IMG/VR virus record: IMGVR_UViG_2721755676_000006 | DNA length: 36,332 bases | DNA from: a virus | Taxonomy: Duplodnaviria > Heunggongvirae > Uroviricota > Caudoviricetes | Direction: 5' to 3' (one strand) | Shown here: one piece after another, positions 1 to 31,250 of the stretch | Numbering within the stretch: position 1 is the stretch's first letter | Layout of the letters: every line of letters begins with the position of its first letter | Program-made: the position numbers and the translations under genes | Notes under the pieces: model-generated | Told to the model about the DNA's origin: nothing | The model's database searches: none | Seen by the model: only the letters and a program-made list of their open reading frames with translations

Positions 1-258
1 ATGCAAACCGTTATTTTTGGTCGTCCGGGTTGCCCTTACTGTGTGCGTGCAAAAGATCTGGCTGAGAAATTGAGCAATGAACGCGATGATTTTCAGTATC
101 AGTATGTAGATATTCGTGCGGAAGGGATCACTAAAGAAGATCTACAACAAAAGGCAGGTAAACCCGTAGAAACCGTGCCGCAGATTTTTGTCGATCAGCA
201 ACATATCGGCGGCTATACCGATTTTGCTGCATGGGTGAAAGAAAATCTGGACGCCTGA
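1..258 (+). CDS. grxA: glutaredoxin 1
   Basis: 85-aa ORF with CPYC redox motif near the N-terminus; ATG at 1, TGA at 256-258; size and sequence typical of enterobacterial GrxA. Confidence 0.9.
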   Translation: MQTVIFGRPGCPYCVRAKDLAEKLSNERDDFQYQYVDIRAEGITKEDLQQKAGKPVETVPQIFVDQQHIGGYTDFAAWVKENLDA

Positions 259-268
259 TCGTCTGACA

Positions 269-287
269 AGCCCTCGCGTTGAGGGCT
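269..287. terminator. hairpin between convergent grxA and ybjM (AGCCCTC-loop-GAGGGCT) followed by T-rich tract
   Basis: 7-bp GC-rich inverted repeat read directly, T-run at 295-300; sits between two convergent stop codons. Confidence 0.45.
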
Positions 288-665
288 TTACTGATTTTTT
301 CTGTGCTGTGGTTTAAACAAACTACTGATAAATAAGAAACACAGTGCCCCCAGCGCACACCAGAACACCGCGCTTAGTAACCATGCCAGCTCTTGCCAGA
401 ATGAGCGCGTCGGTGAAAAAAACAGCCGCATAATGAGCATCGAACAGGGTGCCGCCAGCATTGCGCCAAACAGAGGTTTCAGGACTTCTCTACGCTGTGA
501 AAAGAAGCTGGCGACTGCTCCAGGAAGAATGAAAAATAGCAAGCCGATTTCAGGATGCCCGGCAGCCCGAAAAGCGCCTTTCATGTGCGTCGCCAGAAAA
601 AGGCACACCACAATGAAGAGGACAAAACAGCAGATTGCCCCCGCCCAACGTTGTTTATGTTTCAC
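288..665 (-). CDS. ybjM: inner membrane protein YbjM (GTG start)
   Basis: 125-aa hydrophobic ORF convergent with grxA; matches the grxA-ybjM-ybjL neighbourhood of E. coli. Confidence 0.75.
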   Translation of the reverse strand: MKHKQRWAGAICCFVLFIVVCLFLATHMKGAFRAAGHPEIGLLFFILPGAVASFFSQRREVLKPLFGAMLAAPCSMLIMRLFFSPTRSFWQELAWLLSAVFWCALGALCFLFISSLFKPQHRKNQ

Positions 666-934
666 TCGTTCCTCCTGACACTGCGTCTATCGAACACATT
701 TTTCGCCAGTGTGGCGTTCAGTAAGATAAAGCCGCTTCGCATTCCATGCTAATATAGGCCAACGCAATTCATATAGCCGTTGATACCTAATGTGATTACA
801 CTAGTAAAATATATTGTTACTTTACTATCGTTTAGGTGCGCTGAATGAATCTGCGCCCTGAATTCTGGTAAAAAACATTATCGTAAATTACCATTTCTTT
901 CAACAGCTTACTAGTAAACAAGAAGTTAGCCTCC

Positions 935-2620
935 GTGAATATAAACGTCGCCGAATTGTTAAATGGGAATTACATTCTGTTATTATTTGTGGTCCTCGCG
1001 CTTGGGCTATGTCTCGGAAAGTTACGACTTGGTTCGATCCAACTGGGTAATTCCATTGGCGTTTTAGTCGTATCGCTGTTATTAGGCCAACAACATTTCA
1101 GCATTAACACCGATGCGCTTAATCTTGGCTTTATGCTGTTTATTTTCTGCGTCGGGGTCGAAGCCGGACCGAACTTTTTTTCCATTTTTTTTCGCGATGG
1201 GAAAAATTACCTAATGTTAGCACTGGTGATGGTTGGCAGTGCGCTGGTGATCGCCTTAGGGTTAGGTAAGCTGTTTGGCTGGGATATTGGCCTGACGGCC
1301 GGTATGTTAGCAGGCTCTATGACGTCGACACCGGTTCTGGTCGGTGCTGGCGATACACTGCGTCATTCCGGCATGGAAAGCAGGCAGCTCTCACTGGCAC
1401 TGGATAATCTGAGCCTCGGGTATGCCTTAACCTATTTAATCGGTCTGGTGAGTTTGATTGTTGGTGCGCGTTACTTGCCGAAATTGCAGCATCAGGACTT
1501 ACAGACCAGCGCCCAGCAAATCGCCCGCGAACGTGGCCTGGACACTGATGCCAACCGTAAGGTTTATTTACCGGTGATCCGCGCCTATCGCGTCGGCCCG
1601 GAGCTGGTGGCCTGGACCGACGGCAAAAATCTGCGTGAACTGGGTATTTATCGACAAACCGGCTGCTACATTGAACGTATTCGACGTAACGGGATTCTGG
1701 CAAATCCAGACGGTGATGCCGTGCTACAAATGGGCGATGAAATAGCGTTGGTAGGCTATCCCGACGCCCATGCCCGACTCGATCCCAGCTTCCGTAACGG
1801 TAAAGAAGTTTTCGATCGTGACCTTCTCGACATGCGTATCGTCACTGAAGAAGTGGTCGTTAAAAACCATAACGCTGTAGGTAAACGTCTCGCACAACTG
1901 AAGTTGACCGATCACGGTTGCTTCCTTAACCGCGTCATTCGTAGCCAGATTGAGATGCCGATAGATGACAACGTCGTGCTTAACAAAGGTGACGTTTTAC
2001 AAGTCAGCGGTGATGCCCGTCGCGTAAAAACCATCGCCGATCGCATCGGCTTTATCTCGATTCACAGCCAGGTCACTGACCTGCTGGCATTTTGCGCCTT
2101 CTTTGTTATTGGGCTGATGATCGGGATGATCACCTTCCAGTTCAGCACATTCAGTTTCGGCATGGGGAACGCTGCCGGGTTGTTATTCGCCGGAATTATG
2201 CTGGGCTTTATGCGTGCTAACCACCCGACCTTCGGTTACATTCCGCAAGGTGCATTAAGCATGGTGAAAGAGTTCGGCTTGATGGTGTTTATGGCAGGCG
2301 TTGGTCTGAGCGCCGGTAGCGGTATTAATAACGGCCTGGGCGCGATTGGCGGTCAGATGTTGATTGCCGGATTAATTGTCAGTCTTGTGCCCGTGGTTAT
2401 CTGTTTCTTGTTCGGTGCTTATGTATTGCGAATGAACCGCGCACTGTTGTTCGGCGCAATGATGGGCGCACGCACCTGCGCGCCGGCAATGGAGATCATC
2501 AGTGATACAGCTCGCAGTAACATCCCTGCGCTGGGCTACGCGGGCACCTACGCAATCGCCAACGTCCTGCTGACGCTGGCAGGGACAATCATCGTCATGG
2601 TATGGCCAGGATTAGGATAA
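935..2620 (+). CDS. ybjL: putative AAE-family transporter YbjL (two membrane domains flanking TrkA-C-like soluble domains; GTG start)
   Basis: 561-aa ORF with hydrophobic N- and C-terminal halves and a central soluble region; chromosomal context. Confidence 0.85.
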
Positions 2621-2732
2621 AACTGAAGTTGCCCTGAAAATGAAATTTTTTTGCACAACCGCAGAACTTTTCCGCAGGGCATCAGTCTTAATTAGTGCCA
2701 CTGCTTTTCTTTGATGTCCCCATTTTGTGGAG

Positions 2733-2775
2733 CCCATCAACCCCGCCATTTCGGTTCAAGGTTGATGGGTTTTTT
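2733..2775 (+). terminator. intrinsic terminator-like hairpin (CCCATCAACC ... GGTTGATGGG) plus TTTTTT
   Basis: 10-bp perfect inverted repeat with 17-nt loop followed by T6 at 2770-2775; lies in the ybjL-prophage junction interval. Confidence 0.5.
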
Positions 2776-2855
2776 GTTGCCTGAAATTTAAGCTGTTTAA
2801 AATCATGATGTTAGAAGCACTGTTTTTTAACGATGGCGACAAAATGGCGGCAGCG

Positions 2856-3074
2856 TCAAAGAGAGAGCGCCACCTGTCCTGATTTCATTGGATGCGGCTG
2901 AACCGGATTTGACTCTTTTGGCGTTGCAATCGAACGAACAAAAGTTTCATGGGTAACAAAAGTATGGCTGCAGTTAATGTTCTGGCACTGGTTGTAACGC
3001 TCTTTGGTCAATGAAGATACCTGAAAACTGCTGCGAGTATGGGCGGCACTTCCACACAGTGGGCAAATCATCAT
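2856..3074 (-). CDS. ogr: Ogr/Delta-family zinc-finger late-gene transcription activator
   Basis: 72-aa product MMICPLCG...C..C with the CxxC-N22-CxxxxC arrangement typical of P2 Ogr; ORF track start (GTG 3107) trimmed to tandem ATGs at 3074/3071. Confidence 0.85.
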   Translation of the reverse strand: MMICPLCGSAAHTRSSFQVSSLTKERYNQCQNINCSHTFVTHETFVRSIATPKESNPVQPHPMKSGQVALSL

Positions 3075-3164
3075 TTTTCGAGTTCTCCCCATTTTTGCTA
3101 AATTCACAATAATGATACCGCATTATTCCATTTTGAAAACTTAAAAGTTCTCCATTGCGAAGAA

Positions 3165-4265
3165 TCATTCCATTTCGAAATCATCAATCCTCACTTCAAG
3201 CTCCAGACTGGTCGTAAAACCGTTATCCGGGCTGACGGTATGCGTCAGAGTCGTAATGGTCCATTCCGCATCATCTATCGGCTGTTTAAAACCACTGACC
3301 TTCACAGGCATTTCCGTGTAGAGATCTGCCCGCCCTTCTGCCAGTTGTAGCGAAAATGACGCAACGCCGCGTTGCAGGCGTTCCCACTGCATTTTCGCCG
3401 CTCGTTCGGCGTTGCTCCGGTTGGCATAAGTGCGATTAAGTACCAGCACGTTTTCATCCGTACCCACCAGGTAATCGCCCTGCTTCGCTTCTGGCTCTTT
3501 CTTCTGCTTCTTAGTTCTGCGCTTACGCTTCACCGTGGTGCTTTCTTTCTTCGCAGGTTCGCGGGTATGCAACCAGCTGGCAATTACGCCCGTGTAGGCT
3601 CCGCGATCTGCCAGGGTAAATCGGTGACTGTCGCCGTCCTTGCGTGTGATAGTGATCACTGGCAGAGGTTTACCAGTGGCGCTTTTGCCCTGCCCCTGCC
3701 GGATGAATAACAGATTGCCATTTTTCACCGACGCGATGGCACCGTACTGTCGCGCCAGCCGCATCAGAAAACTGCCGTCACTCTCATTAGTCTGGTCTAT
3801 ATGCTCCACGGGCTTATCCGACAGGTCTTTACCCAGTGCCATCTTCAGCTTGTGCCGCGCGGCTATTTCCTTCACCACTTCCCCGACGGTGGTCTTATGC
3901 CACGATTTTTCACGGCGGGTATTCAGCGTTTCCCGAAAATCAGCACTTCGCGCCCGGATAGTCAGGCGGTCCGGTGCGCCAGTGTGTTCAATCTCGTCCA
4001 CCGTGAATGTCCCTTTCGGGAAAAGCGGCTGCCCCTTCCAGCCCAGCGCCAGCGTAATGACCGCACCACGGCGCGGCAGCACGATTTTTCCGTCGGCGTC
4101 GTCCAGCTCCAGATCAAGCTGGTCCGCGTCAAAGCCCCGATTGTCCGTCAACGTCAGACTCATCAGACGGTTATCCAGCACAGTAGTGATATCCCTGCCC
4201 TCAATACTGATGCTGAATGCGGGAGTTTTGTTGCCTTTGTTAAGCAGTTCAGAGCTGAAATTCAC
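3165..4265 (-). CDS. D: tail protein D (late control gene D family); GTG start with GGGAGGG RBS
   Basis: 366-aa ORF with P2 gpD-like blocks (RLMSLTLTDNRGF, WKG, FLMRLARQYGA); position between ogr and U. Confidence 0.85.
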   Translation of the reverse strand: MNFSSELLNKGNKTPAFSISIEGRDITTVLDNRLMSLTLTDNRGFDADQLDLELDDADGKIVLPRRGAVITLALGWKGQPLFPKGTFTVDEIEHTGAPDRLTIRARSADFRETLNTRREKSWHKTTVGEVVKEIAARHKLKMALGKDLSDKPVEHIDQTNESDGSFLMRLARQYGAIASVKNGNLLFIRQGQGKSATGKPLPVITITRKDGDSHRFTLADRGAYTGVIASWLHTREPAKKESTTVKRKRRTKKQKKEPEAKQGDYLVGTDENVLVLNRTYANRSNAERAAKMQWERLQRGVASFSLQLAEGRADLYTEMPVKVSGFKQPIDDAEWTITTLTHTVSPDNGFTTSLELEVRIDDFEME

Positions 4266-4747: not shown

Positions 4748-7700
4748 GCGTCGTATCCCCCCTGATCGCTGTAGTTACTCCTGGCTTTTGCCTTCAGCCT
4801 GCGTTCACGTTCATCAAGCTGGCGTGCCACCTCCCGCGCAATATCCTGCGCACTTTGTCCTGGCTGCGTCTGGATGATGATCTGCGTCGGTGCCTCAATC
4901 CGGTGAACGGGCGGCACAGCAGCTGCGCGACTCACCATCGCTTCACCGCCTTTCGCGGGAAGTGCCAAAGGATGCAACGGTGGAAGCTCTGCTGGCGCGG
5001 CAGCAACGCCCATCATTCCGGCGACAACCGCAGCCAGTGCAGCGGTATTTCTCCGGCTGGTCACGTTTGCCGGACCGTTGACAATTTCCGGCCCGTTTTC
5101 ACCGACAATGCCGAACTGCCCGCGCGGGATATACCCGCCGCTGTCATACATCCCCGCAAAGCCATATCCCCATGACGGAAAACCACCCGATGGCATTATC
5201 ACTTTACCGTCTGCATTCACCGTCGCAAGTTGCTGACGCGTCACGCTTTCCGGCAGTTTCGCTTTTGCAGCCTCTTTACTGACAATGCCGAGTTTCTCCA
5301 GCAACCAGGAAACGCCGGATTTCAGGGAGTCCAGCGGATGCATGACCATATTCAGCCCTTCCGCCAGTGCCTCTCCGAATCGCCGCCCCATTGCCGCTGC
5401 ACTCTGCAGTTCGGCAGAGGTCGACTTAACGGGCGTCAGCAGATCAGTAAACCAGCCCCACAGCGCCTGTACTTTGTCGCCAATCCACTGAAACACAGGC
5501 TTAAGTGGTTCGAATGCTGCACTGATGGGACCTGCCGCCGCTTTGAATCCTTCCACCACACCAGCGAGAAATGCGGTGATGGGTTGCCAGTATTTCCAGA
5601 CAACCAGCGCCACGCCCGCCAGTGCAGTAACCACAAGACCTATCGGACTGAGCAGAGCACCTAACAGACCAGATATGGCATACAGGGCAACGCGCAGCAT
5701 CGCCAGCGGACCGGATGCCAGTACTCGCAGCACCGCGCCTGCGGCAGCCAGTCCACCGCGTAGTGCTGCCAGTGGATTCATAAACATCACAGCAACAGCA
5801 CGTAAACCGGATAATCCAGACCGCAACAGTGCAACCGGCACACCTGCTACAGTTTTCAGGACATTCCCCGTCAGTGATGCCGTGCGGCGCAAAGACGACA
5901 ACGGCGCAGTAAGTAAACCCGCTGCGTTGCCCGATGAAGCAAGCCCGCGTCGCAGCAGTGCCAGTGGAGTGCCAGCTAACCAGGACAACGCGCTGCTGGT
6001 TCGTGTTACTGCTGCCGTAACGGAAGGTAACGTTTTGATACCCAGCACAGAGAATCCCAGACGGATGACTGCCAGCGGCCCCAGCACTGCAGCCAGCGCC
6101 ACCGCTAAGGTGCCGAGGCCTAGGGTAACCGCAGCCACAACAGCCGCTACTTTCATCAGTGTGCCTGTCAGTTCCGGGTTAGCTTCCACCCAGCGGCGCA
6201 ACGCCCCCGTGATGCTTTTCACCGTGTACAGAATATCCATCAGCGGCTGGCGCAGCGTTTCGCCCAGGCTGCTGAAGGTATTCTGTGCAGTGGTTTTGAC
6301 CAGCAACCACTGCGCAGAAAGTGAATCCTTGTTAATGTCGGATTCTTTCTGCATGGAGCCGAGCGCATCATTGCCCGCTGTCAGTTTTAGCTGGCGCTGT
6401 AGTTCCGGCAGGTTGTTTGCCAGTTTCGCCGCGTCATCGCCAAACTCTTTACCAAACAACATAGTCATGGCAGACAGACGCTTGTCCTGCGGCAGTGCGT
6501 TCACCTTCTCCAGCACACGCTGGATAGTTCCCATCGCATCCTTCGTCATCTGCTTTTCAATCACTTCAGGATTGAGTTTCAGCAGATTCATCCCTTCAAA
6601 GAAACTCTTGCTCTGCATGGTGGCAATGGACAATTCACGCACCATCGCGTTTGCTGCACTGGCTGCAACCTCCGGCGCAGCTCCCAGTGTCAGGAAGGTG
6701 GAACCCAGCGCCGCCGCTTTACGATAATCCAGACGGTCAGCCACACCGCCCAGGCGTTGCATCACATCAATGATGTCCGCCCCTTTCGACATGGCGTTAT
6801 CATCCAGATAGTTCAGCGCATCACCGAGCTGTTCAATATTGCGGGTAGGGATTTTGTAGAGCTGAGCGATTTTCCCCAGACTTTCTGACAGTTCATCCGC
6901 TGGCAGCTCAAAGGCTGTTGCCGCCTTTGCTGCTGTGCTGGCGAAGGCCAGCAGGTCACGTTTCTGGTCTTCCCAGCTGTCGTCAGGGTTTGCGACGTTC
7001 ATGCGCGCCCCACCTTCAACCAGTGCGGCGAAGTCCACCGCACCGTTTTCCATCGGCAGCTGTTCGCTGGCAGCCTTGATGGCATCCTGCATTTCATAAA
7101 AACGTGCAGTACGGTTTCCATTATCGTCACGCAGACCATTGACCTGCTTTGCCACACCTTTCATGGCATCTTCCATGCTGGTATAGCTTTTTACTGCCGC
7201 CATCACTGGCGTCCCCATTGCCAGCCCTGCAGCCGTGGTAGTGGCTCCGGCTCCTGCAATACGATCGCGCACCTCCAGCGAACGGGCATAACTGGCACGC
7301 GCCGCATTCATCCTGCGCTGAGCTTCACCCAGTCGCTTCAGCCGCGCCTCCTGTTTCGACAATTCCTGGTTATAACGTGATGTTTCACGGGCTAAACGGG
7401 CAGTTGCTCCCGCATCATCTTTCGCAGAAATTCCCGCCCGGTACAGTTCTGCACGCACAAGCGCCGTTTGCTTCTGCAAATATTTTTGTTGTTCTTCCAG
7501 GCGTTGGACTGCCAGCGTTTGCCGACCTAAAGCCACAAGGTGCCGTTGTGATGGTTGTTCCATCGCCTCCAGCTCAGAGCTAAGCAAATTAGCCTTCTGT
7601 CTGGCATAGTTCAGCCTGTCGCCTAACTTCTTGTTATCGGCCTGCAGCTTGCGAAATTTTTCCAGGCTGTTACCCGCCTGATTGAGTTGCTTTAATGCGT

Positions 7701-19161: not shown

Positions 19162-19812
19162 TCAGCGGCTGTCATTGCGCAGTCTGCGCTCCAGCTGCTG
19201 TTTGTCTTTTTTCACGCCACAGCGGGGATCGAGCTGTAACGCATGGTTGAGATGATTAAGGGCGGAAGCCGGGTTGCTTTCACTCAGGACAGCGCCAATC
19301 GCTTTATGCAGACGCGCCCGTGACTGGTCCGGCATATCCAGACCATCTGTCAGCTCCAGCGTCTGCAGCAACAGATCGGCATCAAAGCCGGTGGCGGCAA
19401 GCATTGCGCTCTGCGCCGCGTCTGCCATTTCCTCTGCCAGCACGGTCTGCACATTGCGATTACCCAGTGGCATCACCCAGCCATGACGCAGGGCATGACG
19501 CCCGATCTCCAGCGCCCCGGCATAATCTCCGGCATCAATGCGCCACAGCATCACGTACATCAGCACGTCATCCTGTTGAGCGCCTCCGGCAGCCAGGACA
19601 CCATCTGCCCAGGCGACGTATTTCGGCAGCAGTTCCACCTTGATTTCCGCTTTTTTGACCGTGGACTGAACACCCTTGAGACGGCGGCGGTCTTCCGCCA
19701 GTTGCAGCAGCATCAGGTCATAGCCCGACGCGTGGCGAACACTGCCGCCCTCGCGGGCGGCCTGTTCAGCCTGAACGCGCAGGCGATGCTGCCGTGCGGG
19801 ACTCAGGCTCAT
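19162..19812 (-). CDS. M: terminase small (endonuclease) subunit M
   Basis: 216-aa ORF, P2 gpM position between N and L. Confidence 0.8.
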   Translation of the reverse strand: MSLSPARQHRLRVQAEQAAREGGSVRHASGYDLMLLQLAEDRRRLKGVQSTVKKAEIKVELLPKYVAWADGVLAAGGAQQDDVLMYVMLWRIDAGDYAGALEIGRHALRHGWVMPLGNRNVQTVLAEEMADAAQSAMLAATGFDADLLLQTLELTDGLDMPDQSRARLHKAIGAVLSESNPASALNHLNHALQLDPRCGVKKDKQQLERRLRNDSR

Positions 19813-21866: not shown

Positions 21867-23633
21867 ATGAACACCACACTGACACCCGCAGATCTCGATC
21901 CCCGTCGGCAAGCCATGCTGCTGTACTTTCAGGGATACCGCGTAGCCCGCATTGCTGAAATGCTGGGCGAGAAAGTTGCAACCGTTCACAGCTGGAAAAA
22001 ACGCGACAAGTGGGGTGACTATGGGCCGCTGGATCAGATGCAGCTCACCACCGCCGCACGTTACTGCCAGCTCATTATGAAGGAGCACAAAGAAGGGAAA
22101 GATTTCAAAGAAATTGATCTGCTGGCGCGCCAGTCGGAGCGCCACGCGCGGATCGGCAAGTTTAACAATGGCGGCAACGAAGCCGATTTAAACCCTAACG
22201 TCGCCAACCGCAACAAAGGCCCGCGCCGTCAGCCTGAAAAGAATGTTTTCACCGATGAACAGATTGAGAAGCTGGAAGAAATCTTCCATTCCTCCATGTT
22301 CAACTACCAGCGTCACTGGTGGGAAGCCGGAAAAACCAACCGCATCCGCAACCTGCTGAAGTCACGCCAGATCGGCGCAACCTTCTATTTTGCCCGTGAA
22401 GCCCTGATTGACGCCCTGCTAACCGGACGTAACCAGATTTTCCTTTCTGCCAGTAAGGCACAGGCGCACGTCTTTAAGCAGTACATCATCGACTTCGCCA
22501 AAGAAGTGGAGGTGGAGCTGAAAGGCGATCCGATGGTGCTTCCCAACGGGGCCACACTGTATTTCCTCGGCACCAATGCCCGCACGGCCCAGAGTTATCA
22601 CGGTAACCTGTATCTGGATGAATATTTCTGGATACCGAAATTCCAGGAGCTGCGCAAAGTGGCATCCGGTATGGCTATTCACAAAAAATGGCGACAAACC
22701 TATTTTTCCACGCCATCCAGCCTGACACACAGTGCTTATCCGTTCTGGTCCGGTGCGCTGTTCAACCGTGGGCGCAACAAAGCCGATAAGGTGGACATCG
22801 ACCTGTCCCACAGCAATCTGGCCCCCGGCCTGCTGTGCGCAGACGGGCAATACCGCCAGATAGTCACCGTAGAAGATGCGGTGCGCGGCGGCTGTAACCT
22901 GTTCGACCTTGACCAGTTGCGCATGGAATACAGCCCGGACGAATACCAGAACCTGCTGATGTGTGAGTTCGTGGACGATCTCGCGTCCGTGTTCCCGCTC
23001 AGCGAGCTGCAGGCGTGTATGGTGGACAGTTGGGAAGTCTGGACCGACTTTCATGCACTGGCCCTGCGCCCGTTTGGCTGGCGCGAAGTGTGGATCGGTT
23101 ATGACCCGGCAAAAGGTACGCAGAACGGCGACAGCGCCGGATGCGTGGTGGTGGCACCGCCAGCCGTGCCGGGCGGTAAGTTCCGCATTCTTGAGCGTCA
23201 CCAGTGGCGCGGAATGGACTTCCGCGCCCAGGCTGACGCCATCAAAAAACTGACCGAACAGTATAACGTGACCTATATCGGTATCGACTCGACCGGCGTC
23301 GGTCACGGGGTTTACGAGAACGTGAAAGCGTTTTTTCCTGCCGTCAGGGAGTTTGTCTATAACCCCAACGTTAAAAACGCCCTGGTACTCAAGGCCTACG
23401 ACATTATCAGCCACCGCCGTCTGGAGTTTGACGCCGGGCACACCGACATTGCGCAGTCATTTATGGCAATCCGTCGCGCTACCACTGCCAGTGGCAACCG
23501 CCCGACCTATGAAGCCAGCCGCAGCGAAGAAGCCAGCCATGCCGATCTGGCCTGGGCAACAATGCACGCACTGTTTAACGAACCGCTGCAGGGCGAGTCC
23601 GCCAATACCAGCAATATTGTGGAGATTTTTTGA
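21867..23633 (+). CDS. P: terminase large (ATPase) subunit P
   Basis: 588-aa ORF, P2 gpP-like. Confidence 0.9.
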   Translation: MNTTLTPADLDPRRQAMLLYFQGYRVARIAEMLGEKVATVHSWKKRDKWGDYGPLDQMQLTTAARYCQLIMKEHKEGKDFKEIDLLARQSERHARIGKFNNGGNEADLNPNVANRNKGPRRQPEKNVFTDEQIEKLEEIFHSSMFNYQRHWWEAGKTNRIRNLLKSRQIGATFYFAREALIDALLTGRNQIFLSASKAQAHVFKQYIIDFAKEVEVELKGDPMVLPNGATLYFLGTNARTAQSYHGNLYLDEYFWIPKFQELRKVASGMAIHKKWRQTYFSTPSSLTHSAYPFWSGALFNRGRNKADKVDIDLSHSNLAPGLLCADGQYRQIVTVEDAVRGGCNLFDLDQLRMEYSPDEYQNLLMCEFVDDLASVFPLSELQACMVDSWEVWTDFHALALRPFGWREVWIGYDPAKGTQNGDSAGCVVVAPPAVPGGKFRILERHQWRGMDFRAQADAIKKLTEQYNVTYIGIDSTGVGHGVYENVKAFFPAVREFVYNPNVKNALVLKAYDIISHRRLEFDAGHTDIAQSFMAIRRATTASGNRPTYEASRSEEASHADLAWATMHALFNEPLQGESANTSNIVEIF

Positions 23634-24661
23634 TGGGAAAGAGTAAGAAGAACCGCGCTGCGTCGACGAAACAGATCCAGCATAAAGGCCAGACTTCAGC
23701 CGAAGCATTCAGCTTCGGTGATCCCGTTCCTGTTCTGGACCGCCGCGAACTGCTGGACTATGTGGAATGCGTACAGATGGATCGTTGGTATGAGCCGCCT
23801 GTGAGTTTCGACGGACTGGCGCGAACCTTCCGCGCCGCCGTGCATCACAGCTCACCGATTGCAGTGAAGTGCAACATTCTAACCAGCACCTACATCCCTC
23901 ACCCGCTGCTCAGCCAGCAGGCTTTTTCGCGTTTTGTGCAGGACTATCTGGTTTTTGGTAACGCCTACCTGGAGAAACGCACTAACCGCTTCGGTGAAGT
24001 TATCGCCCTTGAGCCTGCACTGGCAAAATACACCCGACGCGGGTTAGACCTGGATACCTACTGGTTTGTGCAATACGGCATGACTACGCAGCCGTATCAG
24101 TTCACGAAAGGCAACATTTTTCATCTGATGGAACCGGACATCAACCAGGAGATCTACGGCCTGCCCGGTTATCTTTCTGCCATTCCGTCAGCTCTGCTCA
24201 ACGAGTCCGCCACGCTGTTCCGCCGCAAGTATTACATTAACGGCAGTCATGCAGGCTTCATCATGTACATGACCGATGCAGCGCAGAACCAGGAGGATGT
24301 GAACAACCTCCGCAATGCGATGAAAAGCGCCAAAGGTCCTGGTAACTTCCGTAACCTGTTTATGTACTCGCCTAACGGTAAAAAGGACGGGCTTCAGATT
24401 ATCCCGTTGTCAGAAGTGGCGGCGAAGGATGAGTTCCTGAATATCAAGAACGTGAGCCGGGACGACATGATGGCGGCGCATCGTGTGCCGCCACAAATGA
24501 TGGGGATAATGCCTAATAATGTCGGGGGGTTTGGGGATGTGGAGAAGGCCAGTAAGGTATTCGTACGTAATGAATTGCTCCCGCTTCAGAAAAGAATAGA
24601 AGAACTTAATGAGTTTGTTGGATGTGAACTCATTAAGTTCATTCCTTATGACCTAAAATAA
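23633..24661 (+). CDS. Q: portal protein Q
   Basis: ATG at 23633 overlapping P stop (TGATG); 342 aa, P2 gpQ-like. Confidence 0.9.
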   Translation: MGKSKKNRAASTKQIQHKGQTSAEAFSFGDPVPVLDRRELLDYVECVQMDRWYEPPVSFDGLARTFRAAVHHSSPIAVKCNILTSTYIPHPLLSQQAFSRFVQDYLVFGNAYLEKRTNRFGEVIALEPALAKYTRRGLDLDTYWFVQYGMTTQPYQFTKGNIFHLMEPDINQEIYGLPGYLSAIPSALLNESATLFRRKYYINGSHAGFIMYMTDAAQNQEDVNNLRNAMKSAKGPGNFRNLFMYSPNGKKDGLQIIPLSEVAAKDEFLNIKNVSRDDMMAAHRVPPQMMGIMPNNVGGFGDVEKASKVFVRNELLPLQKRIEELNEFVGCELIKFIPYDLK

Positions 24662-24670
24662 AATATACAA

Positions 24671-24697
24671 ATGACACAAAAGTGTCATTTTATTTTA
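24671..24697. terminator. bidirectional hairpin ATGACAC-AAAA-GTGTCAT with flanking T-tract
   Basis: 7-bp inverted repeat between convergent Q and the AT-rich cargo operon; stop codon of the 174-aa ORF lies inside it. Confidence 0.4.
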
Positions 24698-25209
24698 TCA
24701 AGAGGCTTTACCCATTTCTCATGCAAATCCTCTAGCTTAAATGTATTATTTTTTGTCAACCATTTATGAACCAAAGCTATAATTTCTGACCTAGAATAAC
24801 GCTTATAATACAGTTCAGGATTTGCATTATATTGCTCTACTATATGTTGTCCAACTATTGCAAGTTGTCGATGGTCAATAGCGACTAAATCCCTATGCAT
24901 AGGATTTACAGCTTCAAACTTACTTTGCCCCGGATTGTTAGCTATCTGAACACCATTTTCTCTAAGCCAGTCCTCATCCAACCAAATAAGATCAATGATA
25001 TCAGGCGAGGACATAGTTGTAGCTAATGCAACAACGATTTTCTCGGCATCCTCTGTGGTAAAGTCAATTGAATCTGAAGCCCAAACAGAAAGAGTATTAT
25101 TCTTTGTTCGTGTACACCCAGTAATAGCATCGCCTGAAAAATTATCAGGCTGCAATGTTAAGTTAGGTTCCCATTTTGCAATTGATATTTTTCTTAACAA
25201 ATAACTCAT
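24685..25209 (-). CDS. hypothetical protein, third gene of AT-rich cargo operon
   Basis: 174-aa ORF; ATG overlaps the upstream stop (ATGA coupling); no recognisable motif. Confidence 0.6.
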   Translation of the reverse strand: MSYLLRKISIAKWEPNLTLQPDNFSGDAITGCTRTKNNTLSVWASDSIDFTTEDAEKIVVALATTMSSPDIIDLIWLDEDWLRENGVQIANNPGQSKFEAVNPMHRDLVAIDHRQLAIVGQHIVEQYNANPELYYKRYSRSEIIALVHKWLTKNNTFKLEDLHEKWVKPLDKIK

Positions 25210-25865
25210 TGCATGCGTCCCAAATAGTCTATGACAGATTTTTTATAATTATCCAACCAACTTATTCCAAAATCTCTTATTCCATTTAGATATAGTGCAA
25301 GTTGTGGATTGCCCCATCCTTCTGCCGCACGCAGAGCTGCTTCATTTACATATTTATCATCATAAACCGATGCAGCCAATATGATAGCATCAGCCTTATC
25401 ACCAAGAATTTCATATTCTAAGCAAGATGCAACACATATGAAATTTCGTAATTCATACGTATTTTTATTGCGAAAGAGGTCTAACCAAACCCGTTGAAAA
25501 ACCTCCCTAAAAACAAATGGATTTTCTTTGTAAAGGCCTTCAAGATAAAGTTGAGTCTTAGTGATTTCACCTTCAACATAATCTTCTGAAAATAGTAAAC
25601 TTATAGTCATTTTTTGTTTTTTAATGACTATGCTTTCAAAAGAATTATTTGAATCATCAATTTTTTTCAAAAAAAACGAGCCAGCTTGAACTGCTGTTTT
25701 ATTTGAATTTATTCTAATATCGTTAGCTACATAAGAGGATAATTTTTTTGAGTTATCAGATACTGATGAGTTAACCAAAAAACGGTCAAAGTTATTATCA
25801 TTAATAATAGTGTTAACTTCTGACGAAGCCTCAGACAAAATTATATTTCCATAATTTTTATCCAT
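25206..25865 (-). CDS. hypothetical protein, second gene of AT-rich cargo operon
   Basis: 219 aa from ATG at 25865 with GTGAGG RBS (track start 25904 trimmed); Asn/Ser-rich N-terminus, no recognisable motif. Confidence 0.55.
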   Translation of the reverse strand: MDKNYGNIILSEASSEVNTIINDNNFDRFLVNSSVSDNSKKLSSYVANDIRINSNKTAVQAGSFFLKKIDDSNNSFESIVIKKQKMTISLLFSEDYVEGEITKTQLYLEGLYKENPFVFREVFQRVWLDLFRNKNTYELRNFICVASCLEYEILGDKADAIILAASVYDDKYVNEAALRAAEGWGNPQLALYLNGIRDFGISWLDNYKKSVIDYLGRMQ

Positions 25866-25872
25866 GGCAGCC

Positions 25873-26568
25873 TCACTTATTCGTATAACGAGATAATTGC
25901 TCAATTAAATTGGCATTATTTTCTTGCAACTCACTAACAATAGAGTTCGCAGAATTAAAATCAAACCGAAGCGAATTATTTTCTGCCAATGTATTTGTAT
26001 CCACCTCAAAGTTTATTACTTCTGTTGGATGATTATTATTTACTAATGGAGTCTGAATGAAACAACGACGAACAGTACTCCCACTATTCACACTCTCATT
26101 TAAATTTTTCAAATTGACTCGCTCAACAATACGATTATCCCATTCAAATGGTTCTGCATTACGATGAGTGAATAGCTCTCTGTAAAGCCTGGAGTAATTA
26201 TCCTGACTATCATGATAAAAATATGAATTAATAACTGACAGTCTTGTCGCTTTTTTATTAGGGAATATTGACTGTAAAGACTTCATAATATCTTTAACTT
26301 TATTTATGAACTCTTCACTGGAACCGCCGACTCCATGAAAGACAATAGCCCCCAAGGGAAATTCAACCCGAAAATTTTGGTCAGGCGAAGTCATAATAAC
26401 TATTTGACGCTTTTCCCCTGTTAAAGCATTCAACTCCTGCCCAAACATGGGTAAAAGGGATAACGCAGCCAAATTAGACAACAGCATCGAAAGCACTGGC
26501 GGTGTAGCAGTGACATCAGAATTGTTTGTAAAATATGATGCTTGGTAATTTTGAAATAATAATTCCAT
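25873..26568 (-). CDS. hypothetical protein, first gene of AT-rich cargo operon
   Basis: 231-aa ORF with strong AGGAGGA RBS; soluble, no recognisable catalytic motif. Confidence 0.6.
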   Translation of the reverse strand: MELLFQNYQASYFTNNSDVTATPPVLSMLLSNLAALSLLPMFGQELNALTGEKRQIVIMTSPDQNFRVEFPLGAIVFHGVGGSSEEFINKVKDIMKSLQSIFPNKKATRLSVINSYFYHDSQDNYSRLYRELFTHRNAEPFEWDNRIVERVNLKNLNESVNSGSTVRRCFIQTPLVNNNHPTEVINFEVDTNTLAENNSLRFDFNSANSIVSELQENNANLIEQLSRYTNK

Positions 26569-26723
26569 TTTATCCTCCTGAACAATTCATGCGCCATTTG
26601 GCACGAACAATCATTCTTTCAGTATATTAGATTATCCACACAGCTACTAGTAGCCTAACGAAGAAACGGCATAACTGGTCTACTTCGGAAATCCAACAAC
26701 ATAATGGTACCAGCTTGCGCGCG

Positions 26724-26742
26724 CTCGTATCCCCGCCACGCC
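26724..26742 (-). other. candidate cos cohesive-end sequence (P2/186-like)
   Basis: Minus-strand GGCGTGGCGGGGATACGAG; the first 13 nt match my recollection of the 186/P2 cohesive-end consensus GGCG(T/A)GGCGGGGA. Confidence 0.4.
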
Positions 26743-27013
26743 TGCCCGCTTTATATAGTGGTTTTCATGCACCTGCATGACATAAGCAAAAGCCCGCCAT
26801 ACCTAGCAGGCCCCAACTAGAGCGATCCTTAAACGATCATGCGGATTCATGCAGTATAGACATGCAGTAGTTACGCCAAACCGTGTAGCGAGGCCACCTG
26901 CTAAAAATGTTCACGGAGTAACATTTGATCTCCACTGCAAAAAATGAAACTTTCGCTTTCACCAAATATAACAAGAGGTAATCTTTGGTGTTTTACACAG
27001 CAAACGGTGAGCC

Positions 27014-27595
27014 ATGAAAGTCAACATAAAACAGATTGTTGGAAATTGGGAATTAGGTCTTGCGATGGATAAACACAGCATCCGCAGCATTCCCATTGGT
27101 TACGATGAGTGGGGACATATGCGGTTTGAGACGGAGCGTACTGAGGTAGGCGAATCTCTTTTCCAGCTTAAATACCGTGACGATTGGTCACAAGTTAAGC
27201 CTTTAGCCCAATGCCTAGCAGAGCATGCCTTTCCTCATTTCAGCAATGTCGGGTTTATCGTTCCAATGGCTGCATCTAATCAGCGTGCACGCCAGCCAGT
27301 GACCGAAATAGCTCAGGAACTAGCCAAACTAGTTGGCAAACCATGCTTCGATGACCTCTTGTTGAAAGCCCCCGGCGGGGCATCGCTAAAGAACCTGAAT
27401 ACAAAAGAAGAGAAAATCACGGCGCTGGGTAATTCGTTCTCTGTTAATGACAGTATTGAGAATAATGGCAACTGGAATGTCCTTATCATTGACGACCTCT
27501 ACCATACAGGCGCATCTATGGAGGCTGCTTGTGCTGTGCTAAACGATTATACTAAGGTTAGAAGCATTTATGTTGCAGCTTTGACTTGGAGATAG
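27014..27595 (+). CDS. phosphoribosyltransferase (PRTase)-like protein
   Basis: 193-aa ORF with PRPP-binding-loop-like motif VLIIDDLYHTGASM near the C-terminus; AT-rich. Confidence 0.55.
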   Translation: MKVNIKQIVGNWELGLAMDKHSIRSIPIGYDEWGHMRFETERTEVGESLFQLKYRDDWSQVKPLAQCLAEHAFPHFSNVGFIVPMAASNQRARQPVTEIAQELAKLVGKPCFDDLLLKAPGGASLKNLNTKEEKITALGNSFSVNDSIENNGNWNVLIIDDLYHTGASMEAACAVLNDYTKVRSIYVAALTWR

Positions 27596-27597
27596 TG

Positions 27598-28155
27598 ATG
27601 ACTACGGTATTTGTTGCTGGTTCAATAACCATCAAAAACCTTGACACACTCATCGTGGATCGTCTGAAAAAAATTGTTAACTCGCGTTTTCGTATTGTAG
27701 TTGGTGATGCCAATGGTGTTGATTCATCTGTTCAACGCGTATTGCTAGAACTTGGATGTGAAAAAGCCACAGTATTCAGTAGCTCAGAAAAACCGCGCAA
27801 TAATCTTGGCTCATGGCCTGTACATGTAGTAAGTACTAGCCATGCAGCCGGCACTCGCGCGTTTTTCACTGCGAAAGATCTCAAAATGGCAGAAGAAGCC
27901 GATTATGGATTAATGGTTTGGGATACGAAGAGCACGGGTACTCTGAGTAACGTGATTGAGCTTCTTAAACGTAAAAAATACTCTGTCGTTTTTGTTAATA
28001 AATACAAAAAGTTCTTTATTATCAAATCTCCAGAGCACCTTGACGCTTTGATTAACTGCATGTCACCAGCCTCTTTGGAAAAAGCTGATGAAAAGATCAG
28101 ATTGCGCGAAAAAATCAACCAACTAAAAAACGAGCAAATCCAGATGTTTATGTGA
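27598..28155 (+). CDS. DprA/SLOG-like Rossmann-fold protein
   Basis: 185 aa from ATG at 27598 with GGAG RBS; motif RIVVGDANGVDSSVQRVLLELG resembles the DprA/LOG glycine-rich nucleotide-binding loop. Confidence 0.4.
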   Translation: MTTVFVAGSITIKNLDTLIVDRLKKIVNSRFRIVVGDANGVDSSVQRVLLELGCEKATVFSSSEKPRNNLGSWPVHVVSTSHAAGTRAFFTAKDLKMAEEADYGLMVWDTKSTGTLSNVIELLKRKKYSVVFVNKYKKFFIIKSPEHLDALINCMSPASLEKADEKIRLREKINQLKNEQIQMFM

Positions 28156-28244
28156 AATTCTTTGATGATAACACTAACGCCTCGCCCTGCTCGTTGTTCA
28201 ACCTTGCTGGCTTCAGAATCAAGTACTGATGCCAGCAACGTTTC

Positions 28245-28478
28245 TTAATGCAGCCAGCTGTCGTCTTCCCACACCTTCTGCATAATTTTCATCACTTGTT
28301 TTCTTTCTTCGTCCAGTTGCAGTCCGGTCAGTTCCACACCGTTAGAGCTACCTTTTCGGATACGAATTACCGTTTTGGGATACAGGGGGCGCAGATTGCG
28401 GTAAAGCTCGGATTCAAGGGCGTCCAGGGTAGACTGGCTAATCTTCTGCTCTTTATCGATCATTATTTCAATGCGCAT
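28245..28478 (-). CDS. dinI: DinI-family protein
   Basis: 77 aa from ATG at 28478 with GAGGTGA RBS (MRIEIMIDK...VWEDDSWLH); size and acidic C-terminus as in DinI. Confidence 0.65.
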   Translation of the reverse strand: MRIEIMIDKEQKISQSTLDALESELYRNLRPLYPKTVIRIRKGSSNGVELTGLQLDEERKQVMKIMQKVWEDDSWLH

Positions 28479-28488
28479 AAAAGTCACC

Positions 28489-28677
28489 TCAACTGATGAC
28501 ATCCATTGAGCGGTTGTATTCGTGAGTTCTGATTTTTGCCATGAGTTCATCAGTCAATTCAGAAACCCACTGCAGGGCCAGCCCCTTCTCTTCATCACTA
28601 CACTCACTAGCCGCTACAAGCTTAAGAAAAAAATCAATGCGCTGGAGCTTCAAAGACTCCAAAAAATAGTCCTGCAT
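28489..28677 (-). CDS. small hypothetical protein (possible Tum-like antirepressor N-terminal module)
   Basis: 62-aa ORF directly downstream of a LexA box and upstream of the DinI-like ORF, in a different frame. Confidence 0.4.
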   Translation of the reverse strand: MQDYFLESLKLQRIDFFLKLVAASECSDEEKGLALQWVSELTDELMAKIRTHEYNRSMDVIS

Positions 28678-28719
28678 CTTTCCTCCTATGACACCAAAGC
28701 AATACTGTATACATAACCA

Positions 28720-28829: not shown

Positions 28830-31250
28830 TTAATACAGGTTTCGCCACTTATCATCTTCCTGCAAACGCTGGTTCCGATAGAAGATACGCAGGCCTGCTC
28901 CTGACGGAATACTGCCTCCGCGAAGCAGTAAATCGACCTCTTTCTCGCTGCCATCAAATCCCCTGGACTTCAGTTCATACACGAGCTGCAGTCGCTGATG
29001 GTCTGTAATTCGCTGTTTGTAGTCTTTACGCCGTTTCGGTTTCACCAGGCGTAACCTTGCTGCCAGTTCCCGGCGCTCTTTTTTGCTCATACTGTGCAGG
29101 TAATCGTGCAACTCCTTGTCATCCATGCGGGTGATATCCGTTCTGGTATCTCCATCAGCTGATTTGTCTTTCCCTTGTTGGTACAAATTTTCAGCAAGGG
29201 GACAGTTATTGCCACGAGTCCGAGTCCAAGGGGCGCAAGCGCCCTGGTCGGCTGCCGCCTCCTGAACGTCAACGGCTTTACGAACCATTTTCCACTTCAC
29301 TGCATGAGTGCAGATCTTGCCCTCTGCAATGGGTGACCAGATGCCATAAATACGAATGCCGTGATCGCCATAGGCGGTCGGCTCTTCGTTGATTTCATAA
29401 GCGGTTCTGATGAGGTGATATTTACGGGGAACCAGTACGCCGCCCTGCTTCATGATGTAGGTGGCAAAACAACCAGCATCAGCAGCAGCCAGAATGGCAT
29501 CAAGACGCGGGTTATCCAGTACCGGCGCACCTGCTTTTTTGTCACCCTGTTGCCTTGCCGCCTGACCAGCCAGCAAGCGAAGTTCACGGTAAGCCTGACG
29601 CCCCGGAATACCAAAGAAGCGGAATTGCTGAACACGATGCAGAGACGCCCAGGCATTCACGTATTCAGCGTTATCACGCAGAGATTTACCCGTTTCCTTG
29701 CTGATCTCGCCAGCCAGACCACGACCGTCAATGTTCTTACTGATATATTTCGCGATGTAGCTTGTCGGCGTTCCTTTGCGCGGGTTAATCAACTCAGACT
29801 TAAAGCGCGGCCCAGTGTTATTGCCCAGCTCCTCGCGGTCTTCACGGATGGCAAACTTACGCAGTAATGCAGTGATGGCACGGCGGTCTTTTTTGCGCAT
29901 GAAACACAACAGGTGCCAGTGAACTGTGCCATCATGATGCGGCTCAGCCACCCGCACGCCATACCAGCGCAACCCGGCTTTGTGCATCGCCTTACGAAAT
30001 GCAGCAAACATGCCGACCAGATAATCGCTGCTTTGTCTTACCGTCGCGTTTGTCCAGGTCGGGTTTGGTCTGCCGTTATTTAGCGTGGAATGGAAACGCG
30101 ACGGACAGGTGATAGTGTAGAAAACGGCGCAGTCACCGCGCATTTCCGCGATAAGCTCCAGACCTTTAACACAGGCCATCATCTCATTGCGGCGATGCGC
30201 AGGGTTGCTGCTGCTGGCGTTTACCACATCCTCCATGTCCAGCGTGTCGCCGTCTTCGTTCACCAGTTCATGAGAACGGAAAAACTCCAGCGACTTACGG
30301 CGCTGCTCACGTTTATGCATCACGGCTTCATAGCTGACATAAGGAGATGCTTTTTTGCTGACCAGGCAAACAGCGCGCAACTGCTCTTCCCGCCATTCGC
30401 AACGCATCTTCCATAATTTCCGGTACCACCAGTCGGCGCACAACATACGCGCCAGCGAACCCGGAATGAGTTTATAGGGCACGGGTTTACGGCGGTTTCT
30501 TTTCCGACGGAGTTGCTCAAACGCAGGTGGGATGACATCCAGACGCAGGGTTTCCGCTGCCACCTTTTCCCATGTCTTGCGGATTTCTTCTGGCTTAACG
30601 TCATCGGTGGCATACAAATCACCACAAGCTGCATCAAGGCACATACTCATATGCGCAGCTACCAGGGTGGACAGGCGTTTCACCTGATCCTGACTCATTT
30701 CAGGCAGGATCAGCAGGCCGTCCAGCCCTTCATGGCTTGCCATAAAGCGAAAAGATGCAGATAGCTGACTGTCGCGTACATGCTCCAGTCGTTCCAGACA
30801 TGGCTTAATCGTCTCACGTAAATAGCGGGAATAAGCCTTTGGCCTGCCCAGGCTGCTGAAGTATTCAATACGTTGCATCAGCGGCTTGCTGATATGGGAA
30901 GGCTGGGCGTTGACGTCCGCCAGAATGACCATGTCTGAATTAAAACGCTGCTGCTCATGCGCCAGCTTTGCCCGGCTAATGAGCTTATCCTGCTCCATTT
31001 CGCGCTGGACAGGATCACGTGATTCATTAAAGAAATAACGCTCCCAGACCTGATCACTCAGTGCCTCGCGGCGCAACTGTTCCTGCTCGTTATCGGCAGC
31101 GTACAGAGTGATCAGGTTTGAAAGCGTAGAAACCGGCGCAACTTCCGCCGGGTCCAGATAAGGGTTAATGGCCTTTTTCGGGCTGTTCCATGAGAATGCT
31201 GCAGCAGCCTCGTTAAAGCCGCAGCAGTTGTTCATATCGGCATGACTCAT
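28830..31250 (-). CDS. A: replication initiation endonuclease A (rolling-circle initiator)
   Basis: 806-aa ORF with HUH-type motifs (..[13 protein letters not shown].. and ..[12 protein letters not shown]..). Confidence 0.9.

Follow-up and report, generated by a model that had tools for sequence, protein, structure and literature searches.

A conserved cos-like block flanked by two cargo modules in a P2-like prophage

Results

A P2-like prophage carries cargo on both sides of a cos-like sequence

The window analysed here is the whole 36,332-nt stretch of the viral record IMGVR_UViG_2721755676_000006. Its open reading frames (ORFs) fit the P2 late genes on the minus strand in both length and order, with the prophage reversed relative to the standard P2 map, and the gene order reads M, N, O, P, Q, cargo, cos, cargo, DinI, A (Table 1). 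Homologues of both terminase subunits are present at full length, and among the remaining P2-like ORFs, those that we checked for head, tail, replication and integrase functions have the expected lengths. The attR end of Klebsiella phage 4LV2017 aligns at about 2665–3200, and a full-length RybB small RNA (Rfam RF00110, 105 bits) is found at 2700–2778 on the plus strand, at or beside the prophage border and next to ogr, which suggests integration at the rybB locus. As judged from these two matches, the border lies near 2665–2784 and the prophage spans about 2665–36332, a P2-sized ~33.7 kb. The same matches led us to reject an oversized prophage that would include a 561-aa ORF (935–2620) as phage cargo. 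Window positions 1–2665 appear to lie outside the prophage; the 561-aa ORF has a full-length match to phrog_4489, a family of unknown function, and ~80% identity to two Salmonella-derived phage-collection records.

Between the two cargo operons lies an intergenic region of 445 bp (26569–27013) with a GC content of 45%, compared with 34% in the Q-side module and 42.5% in the A-side module. It contains, at 26724–26742, a sequence reading CTCGTATCCCCGCCACGCC on the plus strand and GGCGTGGCGGGGATACGAG on the minus strand (26742 to 26724), 2062 bp from the Q stop codon and 1502 bp from the DinI stop codon. An earlier note on this DNA had described a cos-like site about 2 kb from the portal gene in a GC-richer 445-bp intergenic region, with a three-gene module between cos and Q and a second module on the other side, and each of these elements was confirmed. 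Its statement that this is the sole P2/186-like cohesive end in the window was likewise borne out: the 13-mer GGCG[A/T]GGCGGGGA has a single exact occurrence in the 36.3-kb window, and the three further matches each carry 2 mismatches, a chance-level result (4 found versus 1.5 expected).

Table 1 Features of the prophage and of the region between the portal and replication genes. Positions refer to the window; cleavage-related entries are predictions.
Feature	Position	Strand	Basis or remark
Terminase small subunit (P2 M homologue)	19162..19812	-	phrog_74, E 3.8e-88, nearly full length
Terminase large subunit (P2 P homologue)	21867..23633	+	PHROG terminase large subunit families jointly span the whole protein
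Portal gene (P2 Q homologue)	23630..24661	+	Pfam Phage_portal; 94–97% identity to portals of related loci
Q-side cargo module, 2102 bp, 34% GC	24613..26714	-	Breakpoints from J2/VG12A2/Fels-2 comparison
Terminator-like hairpin	24669..24690	.	Perfect 9-bp stem, A/T runs on both strands; between Q stop and last cargo gene
Three Q-side cargo genes	25873-26568, 25206-25904, 24685-25209	-	Products of 231, 232 and 174 aa
Conserved cos block, 152 bp	26715..26866	-	Homology breakpoints and conservation profile
Predicted 19-nt 5′ cohesive-end sequence GGCGTGGCGGGGATACGAG (cosN equivalent)	26724..26742	-	Homology to SEN8, 186, P2 and P4 cos
Cut-proximal conserved segment TCATGCAGGTGCATGAAAACC..AAAGCGGGCA	26743..26780	-	With the 19-mer and CGCGCGC, the ~55-bp P2/P4 core
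Terminator-like GC hairpin and T-run (GGCCTGCTAGGTATGGCGGGCTTTTGC)	26786..26812	-	Centroid fold; conserved in relatives
Three TGCAT/GCATG repeats (about −124, −110, −99)	26837..26866	-	Same positions in SEN8, 186, P2 and P4
A-side cargo module, 1307 bp, 42.5% GC	26867..28173	+	Homology breakpoints
ShosT-like phosphoribosyltransferase, 193 aa	27014-27595	+	PADLOC ShosT
DprA/ShosA-like protein, 185 aa, most likely ATG start 27598	27598-28155	+	Model and structural match
DinI/Tum-like gene, part of the conserved backbone that adjoins the hotspot at its A side	28245..28550	-	Pfam DinI, E 1.3e-22
Replication protein A	28830-31250		
Integrase	Right edge of window		

The cos-like sequence aligns in register with known cos sites

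We joined the annotated right and left ends of 186, P2, P4 and SEN8 and aligned these four sequences and the window without gaps, anchored on the cut. Comparison with the cos regions of P2, 186 and P4, the check that the earlier note had named, yielded a 152-bp block that aligns ungapped and in register with the cut. All five sequences share three TGCAT repeats at about −124, −110 and −99, a (TCA)TGCAnnTGCAT(T/G)AAAACC element at about −38 to −18, and AAGCGGGC(A/G) immediately ahead of the cut, followed by the 19-mer and then by YGCGCGC. In this register, the window 19-mer is identical to the published SEN8 'cos site' (19/19) and matches 186 at 15/19 positions and both P2 and P4 at 14/19. Over positions −35 to −1 of the ungapped anchored alignment, identity is 94% to SEN8 and 71–74% to P2, P4 and 186, and 6–8 of the 8 positions from +20 to +27 match in comparisons with P2, P4 and 186.

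The SEN8 record opens exactly at the position aligned with the window 19-mer, and the SEN8 genome announcement gives exactly this 19-mer as the SEN8 cos site (PMC5427200); in SEN8 and Cartapus the cos feature was annotated by analogy, and the cos assignments published for the TACGAG variant are annotations. Yersinia phage MLG42 and Escherichia phage Cartapus, like SEN8 and Fels-2, have exactly the same 19-mer and adjoining CGCGCGCA as the window. According to Ziermann & Calendar 1990, as that work is cited in PMC3931495, a core of ~55 bp is common to P2 and P4 and needed for packaging, and in the alignment the window stretch from about −29 to +26 corresponds to this core. The features of a P2/186/P4-type cos are found together here, namely a GC-rich 19-nt end, the ~55-bp core, upstream TGCAT repeats and a position between the replication/accessory arm and the portal gene in a genome coding for a gpM/gpP-type terminase; the repeats are included on the strength of the present alignment, and we did not find them stated as a feature in the literature examined.

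By analogy with 186, the top strand would be cut before 26742 (in the minus-strand reading) and the bottom strand after 26724. Overhang positions 14–19 read TACGAG in the window and AAGCAT or AAGCAC in 186, PSP3, P2 and P4, and the cut positions given for the window are therefore extrapolated.

At least 120 IMG/VR contigs carry the 31-mer around the cut unchanged, and the stretch ~26715–26869 matches 91 phage records by BLAST, 82 of the 91 at 80–95% identity, with hosts including Klebsiella, Yersinia, Salmonella and Escherichia. One could ask whether two GC-rich sequences, that of the window and the P2/186 cohesive end, resemble each other by chance, as the chance-level frequency of the 2-mismatch 13-mers might suggest. 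This explanation, to which we give practically no weight, is refuted by the recurrence of the 31-mer in those contigs and by the in-register alignment to known cos sites over ~150 bp, and it also has to face the exact 13-mer.

The conserved block has sharp edges and contains a terminator-like hairpin

Pairwise comparison with Escherichia coli J2, E. coli VG12A2 and Fels-2 revealed breakpoints at 26713–26715 and 26865–26866. J2 is collinear with the window over 22100–26866 and then jumps to 28174, VG12A2 is collinear up to 24612 and resumes at 26715, and Fels-2 matches, between Q and DinI, 26713–26865 only. A conservation profile built from 110 distinct contexts with the same core, among the matches listed, falls to noise outside about −125 to +26. 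From the cut, the block reaches ~125 bp towards A/DinI; in the other direction it takes in the 19-nt end and stops ~8 bp (CGCGCGCA) further towards Q. Its GC content is 52.6%, compared with 54.8% in the backbone and with 34% and 42.5% in the flanking modules. In the 127 bp upstream of the cut, CATGC occurs 4 times against 0.14 expected from its window-wide frequency (~25-fold enriched). The TGCAT repeats are putative recognition elements for the terminase (gpM).

The hairpin at 26786–26812 is kept as GGCCCGCCAG..CTGGCGGGCTTTTG in relatives, and a simple terminator scan made no call for it. Two positions of its left arm that are C in the clade consensus are T in the window; on our reading of the sequence, pairing is then possible only as G-U in the minus-strand RNA. 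Such G-U-compatible changes hint at an RNA terminator directed against transcription from the A/DinI side, and part of the conservation of the block could come from this embedded terminator-like hairpin rather than from packaging. Folded as RNA, the block gains no stability over shuffled sequence (z = −0.37), and Rfam returned no match in the cos region; both results fit a DNA site recognised by protein.

These observations bear on a second explanation, in which the functional cos lies elsewhere, for example beside Q as in P2, and the block is kept as a terminator, a promoter or a small RNA. The terminator-like hairpin would be at home in such an element, as would promoters, which both cargo operons need close by. 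We nevertheless consider this highly unlikely: the window contains no second cos-like sequence, the nearest cargo gene is just 23 bp away from the Q stop codon, the fold and Rfam results are null, and the block stands in register with the annotated cuts of P2, 186 and P4.

Cargo between cos and the portal gene is the normal state in phages with this cos core

A search of IMG/VR for exact copies of the 31-mer at the cut gave at least 120 loci; all census figures are among the matches listed and apply to this 31-mer variant. Among these matches, the distance from cos to the Q stop codon is at least 600 bp in 73 of the 87 loci with a complete portal 3′ end, with a median of 1.5 kb, a maximum of 3.5 kb and 66 distinct values, and the P2/186-like spacing of 150–300 bp occurs in just 12/87. 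Cargo is present on both sides of cos in 36 of the 57 listed loci that could be measured on both sides. Most of the listed phages with this cos core thus carry cargo in the interval from cos to Q, which is their normal state. Clustering of the 300-bp flanks of ~116 loci among the matches listed gave 79 Q-side and 49 A-side clusters, and 109 of these loci contained 101 distinct pairings of a Q-side with an A-side flank, indicating that the two slots reassort almost freely. In one viral contig (IMGVR_UViG_3300011853_000021), two cos cores lie in opposite orientation ~3.2 kb apart (6699–6729, plus strand; 3440–3470, minus strand), which could reflect an assembly artefact or two adjacent elements.

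Individual phages display the same layout. Fels-2 carries a 1.7-kb gene between Q and the block, in SEN8 the portal gene is separated from the annotated cos by two genes, and Cartapus, deposited as a phage genome, has one gene (DUF4145) in this position. The earlier note had called the position of the cos-like site atypical; the distances measured among the matches listed, the annotations of these three phages and the literature since Dodd & Egan 1996 all contradict this. As cited in PMC6868368 and PMC5694545, Dodd & Egan 1996 deals with the slot between cos and the portal-operon terminator, which holds retrons Ec67 and Ec86 (186-related prophage), and the position from cosL to gpQ was proposed to be a hotspot in P2-like genomes (PMC5694545). 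Rousset et al. 2022 catalogued a cos-proximal gpA–gpQ locus with 18,150 occurrences in E. coli and 1,650 arrangements (PMC9122126), and a 2026 study deals with the same gpA–gpQ hotspot (PMC13586616). The window has the variable, compositionally foreign genes that mark this hotspot, lying between A/DinI and Q (34% and 42.5% versus ~55% GC). The arrangement of cos with flanking cargo is already known and has long been described.

The earlier note had pointed out that such a layout must still permit packaging. The underlying observation, a cos homologue separated from Q by an inserted operon, holds; packaging itself poses no puzzle, as conservation ends 8 bp past the 19-nt end on the Q side. In cargo-free relatives, the spacer from cos to Q measures ~150–180 bp and contains the Q terminator, and in the window it is wholly replaced from +28 onward. 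P4 diverges from P2 at the same point past the cos core, and P4 cargo (gop) begins there; since P4 is packaged by the P2 terminase (PMC9122126), the portal-side flank appears dispensable. For SEN8, with its genes between cos and portal, phage particles were obtained and the sequence was determined from phage DNA (PMC5427200); the layout is therefore compatible with packaging.

The block could instead be a decayed cos relic in a cryptic prophage, no longer cut and conserved through recent common descent only. Many P2-like prophages are defective, which speaks for this reading. The core 31-mer, however, is identical to that of phages deposited as genomes, and the recovery of SEN8 as particles also speaks against decay. 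Moreover, phages of Klebsiella, Salmonella, Escherichia and Yersinia retain the block at 82–90% identity despite complete turnover of its flanks, and the prophage carries full gpM and gpP genes alongside its other checked P2-like ORFs of expected length. On this evidence, a relic is improbable.

The two cargo modules occur separately beside cos in other genomes

The Q-side module stands in for the ancestral spacer between cos and Q, including the native Q terminator, and the same module adjoins cos in E. coli J2. Its three proteins match phrog_19817, phrog_21208 and phrog_10743, each of unknown function; they gave no significant Pfam match (two weak matches fell below the curated cutoffs) and none in PADLOC or NCBIfam. 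BLAST of the module DNA against phage records returned no match, and neither did a protein-level search of phage records with the 231-aa product. The hairpin at 24669–24690 is probably a bidirectional terminator that the module brought with it in place of the native Q terminator. The operon is entered as 'hypothetical' in Table S5 of Rousset et al. and is a candidate defence system. We rejected its identification with the validated 'hp+hp+hp' system of that study, the proteins of which measure ~340, 350 and 230 aa and look unrelated.

The A-side module adjoins cos at 100% identity in E. coli VG12A2 and others. Its phosphoribosyltransferase (PRTase) matches PADLOC ShosT (E 1.3e-8) and PsyrT (1.5e-7), with an NCBIfam ComF match below cutoff. 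The 185-aa product of the second gene belongs to a family of ~1,500 unannotated proteins, and this partner had no PADLOC ShosA, Pfam or BLASTP match. Searches with a 189-aa protein of this module gave no BLASTP alignment to the APEC O1 DprA-like protein, no tblastn match in phages, and noise only in a PDB sequence search. A single-sequence AlphaFold model was unusable (pLDDT 41), and we used an alignment-based model of the 185-aa protein instead (pLDDT 94); the highest-ranking PDB entry is ShosA from E. coli APEC O1 (8zva, E 6.8e-5, TM 0.56), followed by DprA and other SLOG folds. To us the PRTase/DprA-like pair looks like a compact version of Shosta in which the gene order is reversed, with a putative function suggested by these profile and structural matches.

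Each module has its own DNA upstream of its first gene, 146 bp on the Q side and 147 bp on the A side. The earlier note had assigned the divergent promoters of both cargo operons to the intergenic region, which is plausible; module-specific promoters would be expected in the ~146 bp of own DNA between first gene and cos block. A sigma-70 scan of 24500–28700 identified no consensus site in the upstream stretch of either module, with a total count at shuffle level. The two modules occur together in no complete E. coli genome in the collection, and each occurs separately beside the same cos block.

Discussion

We conclude, with a probability of about 0.9, that 26715–26866 is the functional cos of a P2-like prophage that appears to be intact and has Fels-2 and SEN8 among its relatives, with cleavage and the exact cut positions extrapolated from 186 and P2. 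The homology to known cos sites, its register, the edges of the block and the frequency of the layout are direct observations, and it is by analogy with P2 and 186 that a sequence of events can be proposed. The terminase, composed of the gpM homologue, expected to recognise cos, and the gpP homologue, expected to cut it, would recognise the block mainly via the ~125 bp on its A/DinI side, which include the TGCAT repeats and the TGCATGAAAACC..AAAGCGGGCA segment. Staggered nicks would then leave 19-nt 5′ overhangs reading GGCGTGGCGGGGATACGAG, and the hairpin at 26786–26812 may stop transcription arriving from the A/DinI side. Because only ~8 bp past the overhang are conserved on the Q side, the DNA from there to the end of Q would be free for replacement, here by a 2.1-kb three-gene module. 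The block would serve as a fixed anchor between two separately exchanging cargo slots, the second and independent one, beyond the block, being occupied by the compact Shosta-like pair.

On its portal side, cos would thus need at most ~8 bp past the overhang in this clade, which would explain why the site tolerates insertions. The predicted ends of the virion genome, 26724 and 26742, are of use chiefly for annotation, and the comparisons delimit the cargo modules to the base (24613–26714 and 26867–28173). The cargo appears more interesting than cos itself, comprising a Shosta-like PRTase/DprA-like pair and a three-gene operon without known domains. We tentatively propose that the cos block acts as a recombination anchor splitting the gpA–gpQ hotspot into two slots, and that the Q-side operon (24685–26568) is an uncharacterised anti-phage system without recognisable domains, distinct from 'hp+hp+hp'; as a whole, this proposal is possible rather than probable.

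The closest known systems are the SEN8 and Fels-2-like phages (Felsduovirus; Elveevirus, e.g. Cartapus and MLG42), which share with the window the 19-mer with CGCGCGCA, the genomic position, and cargo genes between cos and portal. They differ in the cargo genes on both sides, and SEN8 also in the upstream part of the block, where identity to the window is just 66–74%. The cos of coliphages 186 and PSP3 reads GGCGTGGCGGGGAAAGCAT and that of P2 and P4 GGCGAGGCGGGGAAAGCAC. The first 13 nt of the 186 sequence match the window exactly, and 186, PSP3, P2 and P4 all have the in-register layout of TGCAT repeats, TGCATxAAAACC, AAGCGGGC, 19-nt end and YGCGCGC. In P2, 186 and PSP3, however, the portal gene ends ~170–180 bp from cos with no intervening gene, whereas the window has 2062 bp and three genes in this interval.

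In the retron Ec67/Ec86 slot, as in the window, foreign DNA takes the place of the spacer that runs from cos to where the portal/packaging operon ends. The window differs in that its cargo is a three-gene operon rather than a retron, and in that the native Q terminator is also replaced, the module bringing its own bidirectional hairpin. The gpA–gpQ and P4 cos-adjacent hotspots of Rousset et al. 2022 include the very locus described here, and their Table S5 contains both window modules (WP_021823668/70 and WP_024219116/WP_024219117; PMC9122126). That study treats the interval from A to Q as one hotspot, whereas the present data describe two slots split by a 152-bp cos block. Finally, the A-side pair resembles Shosta (ShosTA) of E. 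coli APEC O1, tested in the same study, in that a PRTase matching ShosT stands beside a protein that is structurally closest to ShosA and then to DprA, and in its location in a P2 hotspot, although the window proteins are far smaller (193 and 185 aa versus >400 and ~327 aa) and their genes stand in the reverse order.
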